This document shows positions 1 through 4,335 of a stretch of DNA of 4,335 nt, piece by piece. Each line of letters begins with the position of its first letter. Positions within the stretch are counted from its first letter, which is position 1. A program made the translations under genes and the position numbers. The notes below the pieces were generated by a model. That model searched no databases, was not told the DNA's origin, and was given only the letters and a program-made list of their open reading frames with translations. This DNA comes from a virus (Duplodnaviria; Heunggongvirae; Uroviricota; Caudoviricetes), in IMG/VR virus record IMGVR_UViG_3300011952_000033, one strand, 5' to 3'.

Positions 1-60
1 TATTGGATCAATGAGTGAGTCAACATAATATTAAACTCACAATTATAAATCAGCCATATA

Positions 61-1518
61 TTAGGAGCGCCAAAAAAAACCTGAAAACAATATAATAACA
101 GGATAAATTTCAAGGCGACCAAGAATCATAGCTATGCACATTAAACATTTTGCAATGTCATTAAGCACTCCGAATGACGATGCAGTAGCCCCAAAACCTA
201 ATCCCATATTATTAATACATGCAGCCACTGTTGCAAATGATGTAAGAAAATCATATCCCATACCATTTAACACCAGTATAAAAAACGCCGTGAAGAGAGT
301 ATAAAGAAAAAAGAAACTCCATACAGACCTCATTACACGATCTGTAACTATCTTCCCTCCTACATTTACACTCAACAACGCTCTGGGATGAGAAAGCTGA
401 TTTATCTCGTGTTTGCTTTGTTTGAAAAGTATAAGAAATCGAAGTGACTTAATTCCACCACAAGTTGAACCTATACATCCCCCAAAGAAACTTGACAACA
501 GCAAAAACACTATCGTGTGCGTGGGCCAACTTGCATAATCCTGCGTAGCTAAACCATTATCAGTGAGCATGGAGCTGGCAAGAAAAAACGAATGAATAAA
601 ACTTCCATGCAAGTCATACATACCTATATGCCAGACCTGGAAAGAGGTAACAATGATCACCCCTAAGGCTATTAACAGAAAGAAACGAAGTTCAATATCT
701 CTGATTAAAGGTTTTATCGTTTTCCTGCTAATAACAATATACCAAAGAGTGAAGTTGAAAGCCGATAGCAGGGAAAAAGAACCAGCCACCAGCTCAACCA
801 AATAGTTATTAAAATATCCGATACTCTCGCTATGAGTTGAGAAACCACCAAGCGAAACTGTGGAAATCCCGTGACAAATAGCATCAAACAAAGGCATTCC
901 TGCAAGTCTATAACAGACAATACAAGCAATACCTAATAAAGAATAAGTTATCCACAGTGTCCGTGACGTATCGGCCAGGCGGGGAGTGAGTTTGTCATCC
1001 TTAAATGGCCCCGGCATTTCTGACTGATAAAGCTTTGCACCACCAATACCCAATAATGGCAATACAGCAACCGCCAGAACAATAACTCCTAAACCACCTA
1101 TAAAATTTAACTGTGACCGATAGTACAAATATGCCCGAGGTAATGAACTAACATCATCAATTACAGTTGCTCCTGTTGTTGTTATTCCAGAAACCCCTTC
1201 AAACAGAGCATCAATGAACGTTAAATTAAGTTCTGAGTCAATCCATAAAGGGAATGCACTAATAACAGAAAACAAAATCCAAAACATTACAATTATAATA
1301 AACCCATCACGGGTACGTAATTGAATGCCAGATTTCTTAGTTGTATACCACGCTCCGCCACCAATGCAAAAAAATATAACGAAAGTTATAAAGAAAACGA
1401 ACAGGCTTTTTTCTTTATAAAACAATGCTACAACCATTGGTGGCAACATTGAAAGACTATAGAGCCAAACCAGGAACCCACACATATGAGTAACAACTCT
1501 TACATGAGATGTATTCAT
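61..1518 (-). CDS. trkG: Trk-system potassium uptake protein TrkG (TrkH/KtrB superfamily)
   Basis: Long ORF 61..1536 (track start is TTG). Translation is a polytopic membrane protein with four glycine-containing pore-loop segments typical of TrkH/KtrB (GITTTGATV, STVSLGGFS, LTDNGLATQ, NNMGLGFG). N-terminus from the ATG at 1516-1518 (MNTSHVRVVTHMCGF...) matches my recollection of E. coli Rac-prophage TrkG (485 aa). Alternative TTG start at 1534-1536 is preceded by AAGGTGG (plus 1543-1549). Confidence 0.9.
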   Translation of the reverse strand: MNTSHVRVVTHMCGFLVWLYSLSMLPPMVVALFYKEKSLFVFFITFVIFFCIGGGAWYTTKKSGIQLRTRDGFIIIVMFWILFSVISAFPLWIDSELNLTFIDALFEGVSGITTTGATVIDDVSSLPRAYLYYRSQLNFIGGLGVIVLAVAVLPLLGIGGAKLYQSEMPGPFKDDKLTPRLADTSRTLWITYSLLGIACIVCYRLAGMPLFDAICHGISTVSLGGFSTHSESIGYFNNYLVELVAGSFSLLSAFNFTLWYIVISRKTIKPLIRDIELRFFLLIALGVIIVTSFQVWHIGMYDLHGSFIHSFFLASSMLTDNGLATQDYASWPTHTIVFLLLSSFFGGCIGSTCGGIKSLRFLILFKQSKHEINQLSHPRALLSVNVGGKIVTDRVMRSVWSFFFLYTLFTAFFILVLNGMGYDFLTSFATVAACINNMGLGFGATASSFGVLNDIAKCLMCIAMILGRLEIYPVIILFSGFFWRS

Positions 1519-1655
1519 ATCTAAATATTCTTTCAATTATAACCACCTTGCTGCAATATTATGATTATACTGTATAAAATTTAACTCCTCTTAGATCTTA
1601 CTTCACTGTTCCTTATGAAACAATCATCAAAATGAATCATATTGTAGTTAAGATT

Positions 1656-2120
1656 TTACTTTAAACACTGCTCGGTTATGTATTGCTGAGCACCTTCAAG
1701 TTGGGCCTGCATCATTACCAGTCGTTCCCGGAGGGTGAAATAATCCCGTTCAGCGGTGTCTGCCAGTCGGGGGGAGGCTGCATTATCCACGCCGGAGGCG
1801 GTGGTGGCTTCACGCACTGACTGACAGACTGCTTTGATGTGCAACCGACGACGACCAGCGGCAACATCATCACGCAGAGCATCATTTTCAGCTTTCGCAT
1901 TAGCTAACTCCTTCGTGTATTTTTCATCCAGTGCAGCAACATCACGCTGGCGCATCTGCATGTCAGTAATTGCCGCGTTCGCCAGCTTCAGTTCTCTGGC
2001 ATTTTTGTCGCGCTGGGCTTTGTAGGTAATGGCGTTATCACGGTAATGATTAACAGCCCATGACAGGCAGACGATGATGCAGATAACCAGAGCGGAGATA
2101 ATCGCGGTTACTCTGTTCAT
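1656..2120 (-). CDS. Rz: Rz i-spanin (inner-membrane spanin subunit)
   Basis: ORF 1656..2132 (track start is GTG). From the ATG at 2118-2120 the product ([55 protein letters not shown]...) is near-identical to lambda Rz as recalled: N-terminal TMD plus coiled-coil periplasmic domain. Start overlaps the R stop as ATGA. Stop TAA at 1656-1658. Confidence 0.9.
1715..1900 (-). CDS. Rz1: Rz1 o-spanin (outer-membrane lipoprotein spanin subunit), embedded in +1 frame of Rz
   Basis: 61-aa ORF wholly inside Rz in a different frame; ATG at 1898-1900. Signal peptide with lipobox ([20 protein letters not shown], then T at +2), proline-rich PPPPP segment. Near-identical to lambda Rz1 as recalled. Confidence 0.9.
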
Positions 2121-2614
2121 TGCTGACCCCACAAACAGATTTCACGCTCAATCTCACGACGAGTCATGAGACCTTTCCATTGCTTACCGCCAGCATATGT
2201 CCAGCGACGTAGCTGATCACATGCGCCTTTGATATCGCCCTGGTTTATTTTGCGAAGAAGCGTCGATGTTCTGAAATTGCCAGCGCCCACGTTGTAAACG
2301 AACGAGTAAAGAGCGCCGCGCGTTGTTTCCGGTATATCGACTTTGATGTACGGGTTAATTTGTCTGGCGACCGTGGCAAGGTCTTTATTCAAGAGTGTTT
2401 TGCATTCTGCTTTGGTATACGTTTTACCGAGCATGATGTCTTTTCCTGTATGCCCGTGACATACAGTCCATACACCAACAATATCTTTGTATGGTATGTA
2501 GCTGACACCTTCCAGACCATCGTTACCACTTGGGCCAGTGATTAACACTGATGCTATAGCAATTGCTCCGCCACCAATAGCAGCAGCAACGACTTTTCGT
2601 AATGATGGAGGCAT
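2117..2614 (-). CDS. R: SAR endolysin (phage-21 R-type lysozyme, GH24 family)
   Basis: 165-aa ORF, ATG at 2612-2614. N-terminal weakly hydrophobic Gly/Ala-rich signal-arrest-release segment ([20 protein letters not shown]) followed by a lysozyme domain ([25 protein letters not shown]...). Essentially matches phage 21 R as recalled. Start overlaps S stop (TAATG). Confidence 0.9.
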
Positions 2615-2829
2615 TATTCACCTCTCGCAGCCTTGCGCTTATCTTCTTTAATCTTGAAATAAAGGTTTGTCAGGTACGTCAGCAGGCCAAATACCAGACT
2701 ACCCAGCACACCGATTGCAGCCCACTGTGACGGAGTTACTCTATCGAGCAACTGTAAAAACCAGTAGCCGGCACTGCCTGCGGAGGTGCCGTAGGCAATG
2801 CCTGTTGAAATTTTGTCCATGGATTTCAT
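2614..2829 (-). CDS. S: Pinholin / antiholin, phage-21 S-type with dual start (71-aa form from Met1 at 2827-2829; 68-aa form from Met4 at 2818-2820)
   Basis: Track ORF 2614..2886 starts at an upstream GTG, but the ATG at 2827-2829 is preceded by GGAGGTGAGG (SD). From there the product is [71 protein letters not shown]: two TMDs and a charged C-terminus, matching phage 21 S (S71/S68 dual-start MKSM motif) as recalled. Stop TAA at 2614-2616. Confidence 0.9.
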
Positions 2830-2928
2830 AGCCTCACCTCCGCACGGAACGGATGGCATAGTTATTATGTGTAGGCTTTCAGACACATCAATCAGAGCCT
2901 TAATTGATATATATGCTGGAGACGATGC

Positions 2929-2955
2929 AATATAAAAAGCTCGCCGTAGCGAGCT
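2929..2955 (-). terminator. Rho-independent terminator between lipoprotein genes and holin
   Basis: On the minus strand: AGCTCGC-TACG-GCGAGCT (perfect 7-bp GC-rich stem, 4-nt loop; plus 2938-2955) immediately followed by TTTTATATT (plus 2929-2937). On the plus strand the hairpin is followed by an A-rich run, so it is oriented for minus-strand transcripts. Confidence 0.6.
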
Positions 2956-3080
2956 AATAAAATGTATTTCTCTGATATTATGTTTATTTGTATTAGCTCA
3001 GACTTGACATCACAGGTTTCGTATATAGAACATCATCAAATCTGTCAGTTTGCTATGAATGAGATATAGTAATTGAAGAG

Positions 3081-3476
3081 CTAACCTCGCATGTCAAAGC
3101 CAGATTTCTGAAAATCTCTGTAGACTTCCGGATTGTTGAAGGCCGGAAATTTGGCTTTATGAGCTGCGGACTTTATCGCTTCGCAATAGGCTTTATCACC
3201 GTTACTGGTAGATATTTTTAACGCCGTGCCATCCTGAGAGAATTCCATATGCAACCTGCATTTTTTCCCTTTCCAGTTATGCGGCTCATCAAGTTTGGCA
3301 TTAATTGCAGCTCTGATTCCCCGCGCTTGCGCCCCCCATTCATCCTGATCATCCCAGCGTCCTGAACTGCAACTACCTGTAGCAGTAGTTTTGTGGCAAT
3401 CTGAAGGGTGTAAAGGTGTGCATCCCGCAACAAAACCGACCCAAAAAGTCAACATAACGATTTTCTTTAATCCCAC
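3081..3476 (-). CDS. Putative outer-membrane lipoprotein with divergent TolA-C-terminal-domain-like region (paralog of the 3627-4055 gene)
   Basis: 131-aa ORF. GTG start at 3474-3476 preceded by GAGGAG at 6-nt spacing (plus 3484-3489). Signal peptide with lipobox MGLKKIVMLTFWVGFVAGC, T at +2. The C-terminal approx. 85 aa (GKKCRLHMEFSQDGTALKISTSNGDKAYCEAIKSAAHKAKFPAFNNPEVYRDFQ) share the motif skeleton and two conserved Cys with the neighbouring gene and with TolA domain III. Stop TAG at 3081-3083. Start codon choice (GTG vs internal ATG at M8) is uncertain. Confidence 0.75.
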   Translation of the reverse strand: MGLKKIVMLTFWVGFVAGCTPLHPSDCHKTTATGSCSSGRWDDQDEWGAQARGIRAAINAKLDEPHNWKGKKCRLHMEFSQDGTALKISTSNGDKAYCEAIKSAAHKAKFPAFNNPEVYRDFQKSGFDMRG

Positions 3477-3626
3477 TTCTTGCTCCTCAATCCATTAAAA
3501 TCTCAGCAATAGTAGTTGTTACGTCCGCCACTGGCTCAGAGCTGACTATCCGCTAAATTTAGCTCAGTGCCGTAGCTGTGTCAGAACAAACCTAAGCCGA
3601 AACCGTTTATTACAAAACAATAAATA

Positions 3627-4055
3627 TCAGGGTTTAAAATCCAGCACCCCATTTTGAAATACTTTATATACTTCCGGCGAAGGGGGGGCAGGTATATCAG
3701 CATTCTTTATCGCATTCATCGCTTCACGACATAAATCGAGGTCTCCACTTTCTCTTTTAACCTCCAGTAGAAGGCCATTCGGGGCCATATGCATTCTCAG
3801 TGTACACTCTTTTCCTGAATACTTACTCGCATCCCCGAACTGTTTTTCGATGGCGCTCTTGATTTGATGGGCATACAGACGGATATCCTCACTAACATCA
3901 GAAGTACGTTCAGATGAACTCACATACTGTGTCTCTATTGCTTTATCGGAGTAATATGATGTACGGTCATGATAATTTGTCGATACAGCATCAGTGCACC
4001 CGATAATAATCCCACTAATAATCAACGTAAGAATTGATGCGCTACGAAAACCCAT
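3627..4055 (-). CDS. Putative outer-membrane lipoprotein with TolA domain III-like C-terminal domain (TolA mimic)
   Basis: 142-aa ORF. ATG at 4053-4055 preceded by GAGGA (plus 4059-4063). Signal peptide with lipobox MGFRSASILTLIISGIIIGC, T at +2, then a Ser/Thr/Tyr-rich acidic linker. C-terminal approx. 83 aa (YAHQIKSAIEKQFGDASKYSGKECTLRMHMAPNGLLLEVKRESGDLDLCREAMNAIKNADIPAPPSPEVYKVFQNGVLDFKP) align without gaps to my recollection of E. coli TolA C-terminus (YAGQIKSAIESKFYDASSYAGKTCTLRIKLAPDGMLLDIKPEGGDPALCQAALAAAKLAKIPKPPSQAVYEVFKNAPLDFKP), roughly 60 percent identical by eye, both Cys conserved. Confidence 0.85.
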   Translation of the reverse strand: MGFRSASILTLIISGIIIGCTDAVSTNYHDRTSYYSDKAIETQYVSSSERTSDVSEDIRLYAHQIKSAIEKQFGDASKYSGKECTLRMHMAPNGLLLEVKRESGDLDLCREAMNAIKNADIPAPPSPEVYKVFQNGVLDFKP

Positions 4056-4084
4056 TTTTCCTCACATATGTCATATAGTAAAGG

Positions 4085-4114
4085 ATTATATATACCGTTG
4101 TTTTGGACGCTCAA
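4085..4114 (-). promoter_or_regulatory. Candidate sigma70 promoter for the lipoprotein pair
   Basis: Minus strand reads TTGAGC (plus 4109-4114), 18-nt spacer, TATAAT (plus 4085-4090); alternatively TATATA with a 16-nt spacer. It sits about 30 nt upstream of the lipoprotein ATG at 4055 in an AT-rich context. Sequence-only prediction. Confidence 0.4.
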
Positions 4115-4172
4115 ACAGCGAATCAGATCAAATAAAACGCACATTTGTTAACATTTACACAAAGTCTGCGTG

Positions 4173-4193
4173 GGATATTCTGAAAGAATATCC
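4173..4193. promoter_or_regulatory. Perfect 9-3-9 inverted repeat GGATATTCT-GAA-AGAATATCC, candidate operator or RNA hairpin
   Basis: Read directly from sequence at 4173-4193. No flanking U-tract on either strand, so not a canonical intrinsic terminator. Lies about 60-85 bp upstream of the candidate -35. Confidence 0.35.
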
Positions 4194-4335
4194 ATAATGT
4201 GGAGAGAATCTATTGAAGTGCATGGTGCCGGGTGCCTCCCGGTGCTCTGGCCGAACTGGCAAACTCCAGAGCGGTGACCTTTAGACTCCGAGCATCGCAC
4301 GATAGTTACGATGCCAGTTCTCCGCGTGCGCTAGC

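Follow-up and report, generated by a model that had tools for sequence, protein, structure and literature searches.

We analysed a 4,335-nucleotide stretch of DNA (hereafter the window) from IMGVR_UViG_3300011952_000033, an IMG/VR virus record assigned to the Caudoviricetes. Every gene in its open reading frame (ORF) listing lies on the minus strand, and the order of transcription is gene A, gene B, a terminator-like hairpin, holin, lysozyme, Rz/Rz1 and trkG (Table 1). Genes A and B, the subjects of this report, each encode a small predicted lipoprotein in which a linker connects the lipobox to a domain resembling TolA-III, the C-terminal domain of the cell-envelope protein TolA. A preliminary description of gene B had read it as one half of a tandem duplication of such lipoproteins. 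Here we describe gene B, its relationship to gene A, its occurrence outside the prophage and the functions that the two proteins may serve.

Table 1. Positions of genes and sequence features in the window (position 1 is the first letter of the stretch)
Feature	Position	Strand	Details
Gene B, 131-aa pre-lipoprotein	3081..3476	-	GTG start; stop codon 3083-3081 (ORF listing)
Shine–Dalgarno sequence of gene B, GAGGAG	3483..3488	-	6-nt spacer to GTG at 3476
Predicted signal peptide of B (residues 1-18) and lipobox Cys19	3420..3476	-	n-region KK, hydrophobic core, F-V-A-G-C; Cys19 codon 3422-3420
Conserved 'linker' of B, residues 20-43, TPLHPSDCHKTTATGSCSSGRWDD	3348..3419	-	C27 codon 3398-3396; C36 codon 3371-3369
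TolA-III-fold domain of B, residues 44-131	3084..3347	-	C73 codon 3260-3258; C98 codon 3185-3183
Gene A, 142-aa TolA-III lipoprotein	3627..4055	-	lipobox IIGC20; 150 bp upstream of B
Promoter-like CTGACA-17-TAAATT before B	3556..3584	-	consensus scan only, 9/12
Promoter-like TTGAGC-18-TATAAT before A	4085..4114	-	consensus scan, 10/12
Intrinsic-terminator-like hairpin AGCTCGC-TACG-GCGAGCT, then TTTTTATATT	2928..2955 (hairpin 2955-2938)	-	between B and the holin gene
S21 phage-21-type holin	2614-2829	-	Pfam Phage_holin_2_1; lysis cassette 1656..2829
Signal-anchor-release (SAR)-type lysozyme	2117-2614	-	Pfam Phage_lysozyme
Rz with embedded Rz1	Rz 1656-2132; Rz1 1715-1900	-	Pfam Phage_lysis
trkG	61-1536	-	Pfam TrkH

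Start codon, lipoprotein signal and fold of gene B

The preliminary description had placed an ORF with a GTG start and a strong Shine–Dalgarno sequence at this locus, and both were recovered, the former in the ORF listing and the latter as GAGGAG. Translation of gene B most likely starts at this GTG, because orthologues carry an ATG at the same codon behind the same Shine–Dalgarno sequence. The GGATTGAGGAGCAA leader precedes the ATG in the orthologues from IncI1, IncK2/Z and pO157 plasmids, in which the ATG occupies exactly the position of the GTG of gene B. It also precedes the GTG of the Enterobacter and Serratia orthologues, in which the start lies four codons further upstream and '(T/I)VKKIV' is kept in frame. 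The same start is favoured because the lipobox rule is satisfied only from the GTG. As criterion for a lipoprotein signal we used a basic n-region, a hydrophobic core, a lipobox [LVI][ASTVI][GAS]C and a cysteine at about position 15–35. Read from the GTG, the N terminus is MGLKKIVMLTFWVGFVAGC19, which matches the PS51257-type (PROSITE-type) rule. Read from the internal ATG (M8), the cysteine falls at position 12 without a preceding lysine or arginine, and the rule fails. A start at M8, leaving no signal peptide, was an outcome against which the preliminary description had set its own claim; the orthologue starts and the lipobox point to the GTG instead. It had also anticipated that such a start is easily missed by annotation, and RefSeq/PGAP indeed annotates gene B as a 375-nt coding sequence from M8. 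The database cluster that holds the 131-residue form has 696 member sequences.

We also observed that about 40 nt 5′ of the start of gene B (window 3477–3516, minus strand) are conserved across genera and replicon types in approximately 40 loci. This leader reads …CTGAG.TTTAAATGGATTGAGGAGCAAGAA-GTG, and a three-codon mini-ORF (ATG-GAT-TGA) within it overlaps the Shine–Dalgarno sequence. Together with its mini-ORF, the leader may be a translational control element. No common promoter or regulatory element was found upstream of these roughly 40 loci, conservation being confined to the approximately 40 nt before the start.

The Gly-Cys of the lipobox is invariant, or nearly so, across alignments of the family, and by this position C19 is the predicted acylated lipobox cysteine, not a free or additional one. 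The residue after C19 (+2) is threonine in the protein of the window and alanine in most homologues, and is not aspartate. According to the Lol rule, a lipoprotein with a residue other than aspartate at +2 is sorted to the outer membrane. Because neither A nor B has aspartate at this position, both are predicted from the rule to be sorted there, which is the probable location of the two proteins. Evidence of translation comes from pO157 of Escherichia coli EDL933, the orthologue of which, L7092 (16.1 kDa, 'Sp II site VAGC31A'), was detected by shotgun proteomics of STEC 86-24, an E. coli strain that produces Shiga toxin, and was enriched in a membrane/detergent-micelle size-exclusion fraction (PMC3210124, Table 1 therein). 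The corresponding Sakai gene, pO157p55, translates to MVLRSIWVEEQYMGVKKIV…VAGC31A…, in agreement with EDL933 L7092. Because this orthologue was found in the membrane/micelle fraction, the B family is translated and behaves as membrane-associated in at least one natural host.

The remainder of the protein has the fold of TolA-III. Gene B matched the Pfam TolA C-terminal family PF06519 over residues 44–125 with 54.6 bits (cut-off 25; E = 1.3e-14) and solved E. coli TolA-III chains with E = 5e-9 (phmmer). In an AlphaFold2 model built from 42 sequences, residues 44–131 had predicted local-distance difference test (pLDDT) values of about 86–97, with helices at 46–61, 95–107 and 116–122 and strands at 72–79, 85–93 and 124–130. 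The best Foldseek matches of this model were the E. coli TolA-III structures 3QDP, 2X9A, 3QDR and 1TOL (E values from 1e-8 to 3e-7), and superposition on 3QDP gave a root-mean-square deviation of 1.1 Å over 83 columns and a TM score of 0.89. The preliminary description had called B a second TolA-III-like lipoprotein in tandem with the first and had proposed structure prediction as a check, with an unrelated fold as the adverse outcome; the profile match and the model bear out the assignment. The skeleton that it had listed as common to both genes (GKxC.L.M, GD..C and PEVY..FQ), and the cysteines C19, C27 and C36 of B, can be read in the translations. C73 and C98 of B align with C363 and C388 of TolA and are invariant in the family. 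The fold, the position of the cysteine pair and the edge strands are those of E. coli TolA-III (3QDP, 1TOL, 2X9A and 1S62).

Despite this fold, B is not a TolA by the measures available here, because it missed the cut-offs of the NCBIfam TolA equivalogs (NF007065 and TIGR02794; 53.7 against a cut-off of 213 and 47.2 against 59.45), matching only the last approximately 80 residues of those models, and because it is a protein of 131 residues with a predicted cleavable lipoprotein signal. Labels such as 'tolA' and 'TolA protein' are thus misleading. B lacks domain I, which anchors TolA to TolQR, and the long helical domain II, and it has a predicted lipid anchor and a conserved N-terminal element, comprising a cysteine loop and an acidic segment, that TolA does not have. 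It is 31% identical to TolA, with the known ligand-contact residues mostly altered. The databases name the family by domain only ('cell envelope integrity TolA C-terminal domain-containing protein', 'tolA family protein'), and its PHROG match, PHROG 5772 (unknown function), is common to A and B.

The 'linker' that precedes the domain hardly varies from genus to genus. With homologues of 42–59% identity in the alignment, C27 and C36 were still invariant, and at least 90% conservation was found in the same alignment for P21, L22, P24, H28, K29, S38, G39, R40, W41, D43, E46, W47 and G48. The C-x8-C loop and an acidic RWDDQDEW motif are the hallmarks of the B subfamily, and by its conservation the linker is a functional element rather than a spacer. 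In the AlphaFold2 model, pLDDT was below 50 at residues 1–23 and 30–35. The two cysteines, eight residues apart, probably form a disulfide-closed loop in the periplasmic protein. The preliminary description had treated C19, C27 and C36 as extra cysteines of the linker that might form disulfides or bind metal. Its suggestion of a disulfide stands as the likely one for C27 and C36, the invariance of which suits a structural disulfide better than a variable or metal-binding feature; C19 is the predicted lipidated residue. Metal binding appeared less likely than a disulfide, given that H23 is not conserved in distant homologues, that C27 and C36 are invariant and that the protein is periplasmic.

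Relationship and distribution of genes A and B

Gene A is the more TolA-like of the pair. It matched the Pfam TolA C-terminal family with 82.6 bits (E = 2.4e-23) and TolA chains in the Protein Data Bank (PDB) with E = 5e-28, it is 59% identical to E. coli TolA over TolA residues 334–421, and its signal is of the canonical lipoprotein type (…IIIGC20). Over the same residues B is 31% identical to TolA, which agrees with the earlier statement that B is further from TolA than its neighbour. RefSeq/PGAP annotates only the last 261 nt of A, as a pseudogene ('tolA, incomplete, missing N-terminus'). However, A is intact in 78 of the 79 IMG/VR prophage contigs, among which we counted 12 amino-acid variants and in 77 of which the 150-bp spacing to B is kept. 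A is an intact lipoprotein ORF with a domain under purifying selection, and not a tolA pseudogene.

A tract of seven cytosines on the coding strand of A (seven guanines on the plus strand; window 3682–3688) lies in the codons for PAPPSP. Several database variants of 156–163 residues, and one of the 79 IMG/VR contigs, carry a frameshift exactly at this tract. These frameshifts are probably sequencing errors or rare slippage, and they may also reflect phase variation.

The PGAP labels, which call A incomplete and truncate the N terminus of B, together with the few frameshifted database variants, would be expected if the two genes were decaying or functionless cargo, such as a leftover tolA fragment. 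We consider this extremely improbable. The ORFs are intact (B in all 80 contigs, A in 78 of 79), both genes are under purifying selection, both have complete lipoprotein signals and the pO157 orthologue of B has been detected as a protein (PMC3210124). Disruption of the ORF in all related prophages, which the preliminary description had named as a finding that would count against it, was seen in none of the 80 contigs for B.

Selection acts differently on the two genes. In pairwise Nei–Gojobori comparisons of the prophage copy of B with plasmid, Enterobacter and Serratia copies, the ratio of nonsynonymous to synonymous substitution rates (dN/dS) was 0.08–0.12, with dS near saturation in some of the comparisons. 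The linker (here residues 20–47) was the most constrained part of B, at 0.016–0.09, and all 131 residues were identical in 80 of 80 E. coli prophage contigs from IMG/VR. By contrast, dN/dS was 0.26–0.39 for A and 0.3–0.6 for its linker. The preliminary description had cast B as the rapidly diverging copy; the values run the other way, and if either gene is the faster-evolving one, by these ratios it is A. The decoy/counter-decoy arms race that had been invoked to explain the divergence does not fit the conservation of B.

A and B also have different relatives. They are 29% identical to each other, and in a neighbour-joining tree of TolA-III domains, which is rough and without support values but with which the identity figures agree, B groups with small lipoproteins that have the C-x8-C loop (representatives of 42–59% identity). 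A and bona fide TolA are placed at the opposite side of the tree from this clade, and A and B are not sisters. The range of A is narrow: its 46 clusters are restricted to E. coli and Shigella, it was confined to prophages in the six places examined, and in other lambdoid prophages it occupies the same slot between Q and the holin gene without B.

The range of B is wide. A search of 5.8 billion proteins returned 370 clusters of B-type proteins, from Citrobacter, Enterobacter, Klebsiella, Raoultella, Serratia, Shigella and E. coli, with 78–99% identity among the 120 listed. A scan with one genome per species located B in 47 loci from approximately 45 species of Enterobacterales, with hosts that include Leclercia, Lelliottia, Kluyvera, Pantoea, Buttiauxella, Rouxiella, Yokenella, Kosakonia and Erwinia. 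Neither A nor lysis genes lay within 5 kb of B in these 47 loci, except at the Shigella/E. coli prophage locus. No conserved partner gene was found beside B; its flanks differ between most species and are shared within some genera, for example Leclercia. In Serratia marcescens, a solo B adjoins genes with GmrSD_N and HEPN domains, a defence-island-like setting, and in Enterobacter B has a glutathione peroxidase gene on one side and a RidA-family gene on the other. One of 50,697 isolated-phage records carries B, and a comparison with the BFVD viral predicted structures gave no significant match to it.

B also occurs alone on approximately 600 plasmids. On IncI1/B/O and IncK2/Z plasmids it follows the same-strand relaxase gene nikB at a distance of 100–160 nt, and no terminator-like site was found between the two genes, so that co-transcription with the relaxosome operon is possible on these I-complex plasmids. 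On pO157 the orthologue (Sakai pO157p55, 88% amino-acid identity, annotated 'hypothetical protein') lies beside a truncated nikB remnant, just upstream of insertion sequence (IS) elements and toxB. Because B stands beside this remnant, the arrangement suggests that an I-complex plasmid fragment was incorporated into pO157. In the IncI1 plasmid pESBL, trbC directly follows nikB without a B gene, and the plasmid still transfers (PMC4288162). Because this classical arrangement lacks the gene, B reads as a gene inserted between nikB and trbC in some of the I-complex plasmids.

This position downstream of nikB would also be expected of a conjugation accessory factor, co-transcribed with nikAB, that acts in mating-pair or pilus biology and reached prophages and chromosomes secondarily. 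The retention of B beside the nikB remnant of pO157 is in keeping with such a history. We regard a conjugation-specific role as very unlikely, because pESBL-type IncI1 plasmids do without the gene and because most occurrences, counted by species, are chromosomal, with no transfer genes nearby. In addition, pO157 is non-conjugative, and co-expression with pili would suit protection from pilus-specific filamentous phages that use TolA equally well.

The homology between the prophage and plasmid copies covers only gene B, to its own stop codon, and approximately 30–110 nt upstream of its start, which argues that B came in as a module of its own. The preliminary description had proposed a tandem duplication followed by arms-race divergence, with a cysteine-rich linker in B. 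In favour of such a local origin, B deriving from A or the reverse, the two genes lie side by side in the same orientation, are alike in size and architecture and have the TolA-III skeleton in common. On the points examined this origin was refuted, and it has only a slight chance of being correct. The identity between A and B is no higher than that between B and TolA, A is far closer to TolA than to B, and the two fall in separate clades. Each gene occurs without the other, A in other prophages and B on plasmids and chromosomes. Neither the low dN/dS of B, lowest of all in the linker, nor the lack of variants among 80 contigs suits a diverging duplicate, and the homology with plasmids ends at the borders of B itself. 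Because three independent lines (distribution, phylogeny and selection) agree, the A–B tandem is, on this comparative evidence, a juxtaposition of two independently mobile modules and not a local duplication. By the same evidence, B is a single-gene family, old and under strong constraint, that is mobile among the chromosomes of Enterobacterales, I-complex plasmids, pO157 and this E. coli prophage.

Candidate functions of the TolA-III lipoproteins

The classical examples of an envelope machine being parasitised are Tol-dependent colicins and filamentous phages, and known defences against them are receptor loss, immunity proteins and receptor blockage. The genera in which we found B are genera known to make or to suffer Tol-dependent bacteriocins. 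We propose that A and B could act as lipid-tethered TolA-III decoys for Tol-hijacking ligands, a reading to which we assign a probability of about 0.5. Its observed steps are the fold, the signal, the conservation, the mobility and the expression of an orthologue.

Mature B would carry a disulfide-type loop and an acidic, tryptophan-rich segment followed by the TolA-III fold, anchored in the inner leaflet of the outer membrane. Tethered beneath that membrane, TolA-III domains would present edge strands for docking just as the TolA tip does. Incoming ligands would be trapped by a protein uncoupled from TolQR and the proton-motive force, and their import would abort. Candidate ligands are the translocation domains of group A (Tol-dependent) bacteriocins and the N1 domain of pIII of filamentous phages. 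The location in the outer membrane, the binding of ligands, the protection and the complementary specificity of A and B are the steps that we infer.

The docking sites on TolA-III have been described. The N1 domain of g3p from Ff phages, colicin N (ColN) and the N terminus of TolB dock on β3 (A415–K420) by backbone strand addition, and colicin A (ColA) docks on β2 (375-LLDIKP-380) (PMC4339652, PMC7391070). Side chains are secondary for docking, and a proline at D418 or K420 abolishes binding (PMC4339652, PMC7391070). At these sites A keeps most of the known contact residues of E. coli TolA (11 of 16 in α2, 3 of 6 in the ColA box, where it has LLEVKR, and 6 of 9 in β3, including LDFK). B shares 4 of 16, 2 of 6 and 2 of 9, respectively, and its predicted terminal β3 strand (124–130) is free of proline. 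B would thus keep the fold and an unblocked β3 edge with other side chains and an extra N-terminal element, and by these differences in contact residues A and B would cover different ligands. The affinity of TolA-III is approximately 1 μM for ColN and g3p and approximately 40 μM for TolB (PMC4339652, PMC7391070), a difference from which it follows that a modest amount of decoy could protect the cell without a tol phenotype.

Several observations weigh against this proposal. With so few residues shared in β3 and α2, B may miss the classical TolA ligands. Its conservation across genera is extreme and unusual for an arms race with diverse ligands, and a simple decoy model does not account for the N-terminal loop, the part of B that is conserved most. 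In several genera (Leclercia and some Enterobacter) B occupies a conserved chromosomal, housekeeping-like site. The outer-membrane location is predicted, and the proteomics that detected L7092 could not separate inner from outer membrane (PMC3210124). The promoter calls before A and B are consensus matches only. A search of the full-text literature found no functional characterisation of A or B, and a PADLOC scan had no matching model for B. The 2020 Tol-Pal review mentions neither 'orphan' nor 'paralog' (PMC7391070).

The conservation of B, the divergence of its contact residues, its N-terminal element and its housekeeping-like site are compatible with a modulatory role towards TolB or Pal. 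Such a lipoprotein would act at the outer membrane by binding the N terminus of TolB or, with the conserved SSGRWDDQDEWG, the TolB propeller, and would affect envelope stability, vesiculation, the capture of Pal at the division site or the weakening of the envelope late in phage growth, without capturing any foreign ligand. TolB uses the same β3 edge as g3p and ColN (PMC4339652, PMC7391070), B is very strongly conserved together with its N-terminal element, and its stable chromosomal presence in several genera is more in line with an endogenous partner that evolves slowly than with an arms race. In the prophage, A and B are situated on the late-transcript side of Q and directly precede the lysis genes. 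The SSGRWDDQDEWG / S-G-x-W...W-G pattern also loosely recalls the TolB-binding epitope of colicin E9, which is a lead only. Against these points, B is accessory and mobile, being found on plasmids, in prophage and at many unrelated chromosomal sites, and its absence from E. coli K-12 implies that it is not needed for Tol-Pal function. When the linker was compared with all PDB chains it had no detectable similarity to any colicin chain, and the only match was a chance one to DivIVA (E = 1.8). The terminator-like hairpin before the holin gene and the promoter-like sites of A and B themselves argue against a dedicated role in lysis, and titration of TolB brings a costly tol phenotype (PMC4339652). 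On balance, we judge modulation of Tol-Pal to be rather unlikely, and return to the decoy proposal.

Two groups of known systems resemble such decoys. Llp of phage T5 and Cor of φ80 and N15, which exclude superinfection through a receptor, are, as A and B would be, small phage or temperate-phage lipoproteins carried as non-essential cargo, with a predicted location in the inner leaflet of the outer membrane, from which protection of the carrier is expected. Llp and Cor block the real receptor FhuA, whereas A and B resemble a periplasmic co-receptor domain, which would make their action mimicry or decoy rather than masking; in sequence and fold they are unrelated to Llp and Cor. The second group acts at the same node, where TolA-III meets g3p-N1 or the T-domains of colicins. 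Tolerance to colicins and phages results both from the periplasmic g3p of Ff phages and from TolA-III produced in the periplasm in the laboratory, the latter reportedly described by Levengood-Freyermuth et al. in 1993, and would likewise be expected from A and B. However, g3p saturates TolA itself, and the laboratory TolA-III is soluble, is overproduced and causes leakiness. A and B are natural and predicted to be lipid-tethered, and B is diverged in sequence and has an extra conserved element.

A and B may not be the only proteins of this kind. We observed dozens of representatives of 50%-identity clusters that are proteins of approximately 120–150 residues in which a lipobox is followed by a TolA-III domain. 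These 'TolA-tip lipoproteins' appear to form a broad, unstudied class beyond the A and B families, with the same order of signal peptide, lipobox, linker and TolA-III as in A and B. Within it the B subfamily, with its C-x8-C loop and RWDDQDEW motif, forms a clade of its own, in contrast to the TolA-like A of E. coli and Shigella.

More tentatively, A and B could be seen as natural 'co-receptor decoys' against Tol-hijacking bacteriocins and the pIII of filamentous phages. The B family would then be a widespread, unrecognised single-gene tolerance determinant, its cysteine loop and RWDDQDEW motif might confer a specificity of their own, and B on I-complex plasmids might guard the host against phages that use the pilus encoded there. 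If so, a mobile mimic of a periplasmic co-receptor would represent a defence logic different from those known, and a function would be gained for a gene that about one in four complete E. coli genomes contain, that hundreds of resistance and virulence plasmids carry, pO157 among them, and that is found in many species of Enterobacter, Citrobacter, Klebsiella, Leclercia and Serratia. There would also be implications for therapeutic bacteriocins and phages whose entry depends on Tol. Should modulation of Tol-Pal prove to be the function of B instead, that system would have its first accessory regulator borne by a mobile element. The analysis also exposes two systematic annotation errors, in the start codon of B and in the naming of A as a tolA pseudogene.

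The prophage setting

RefSeq records with an identical segment place the window in a Rac/mEp460-like lambdoid prophage, in which the order is antiterminator-region genes, A, B, essD-rrrD-lysis protein, trkG, terminase and head genes. In the isolated phage mEp460_ev081 an identical arrangement of A and B lies between Q and the lysis genes, and the content of this Q-to-holin position is variable among related prophages. Among 5,426 complete E. coli genomes, 771 (approximately 14%) contain the 1.4-kb A–B segment at no less than 99% identity and 80% length.

Predicted promoters before each gene and the terminator-like hairpin after B suggest a moron-like layout for A and B. The hairpin is present in both the minimum-free-energy and the centroid RNA folds and was matched by a terminator scan. 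The promoter-like segment before B is common to the IncK2/Z copy, in which homology extends to approximately position 3590. It is weak evidence, because the segment is deleted in the IncI1 and pO157 copies.

The lysis region (1656–2886, minus strand) begins with a pinholin-family S, which has an upstream in-frame GTG extension in the raw ORF. The lysozyme has an N-terminal hydrophobic, SAR-like segment, and Rz1 lies in the +1 frame of Rz. trkG directly follows the lysis cassette, as it does in the Rac prophage of E. coli K-12, which has presumably lost the A-B-S-R part. No tRNA genes were found in the window.

Two published candidates were set aside. EDL933_2012, described as a 'tail fiber protein (TolA)' that ciprofloxacin induces 32-fold (PMC11125564), was not used: its homology to A or B is not established, and in the transcriptome and proteome papers on enterohaemorrhagic E. 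coli that mention it, it is possibly a mislabelled S21 holin. A RAST-style annotation of mEp460_ev081 calls the 71-residue S21 holin a 'Phage tail fiber protein'. The small RNA sRNA-17, reported from an 'intergenic' region of the mEp460-like prophage of E. coli RS218 (PMC7719688), was considered as a transcript overlapping A or B, and its sequence is absent from the window and from 16 loci.

Upstream of A, positions 4166–4335 (minus strand) matched the small RNA STnc100 in Rfam below threshold, with 30.9 bits where the gathering cut-off is 47, and the match is cut by the end of the window. The complete E. coli genomes with 99.8% identity over positions 1–4244 do not extend across the last 91 bases (4245–4335), and the source of the window therefore differs from those genomes upstream of A.

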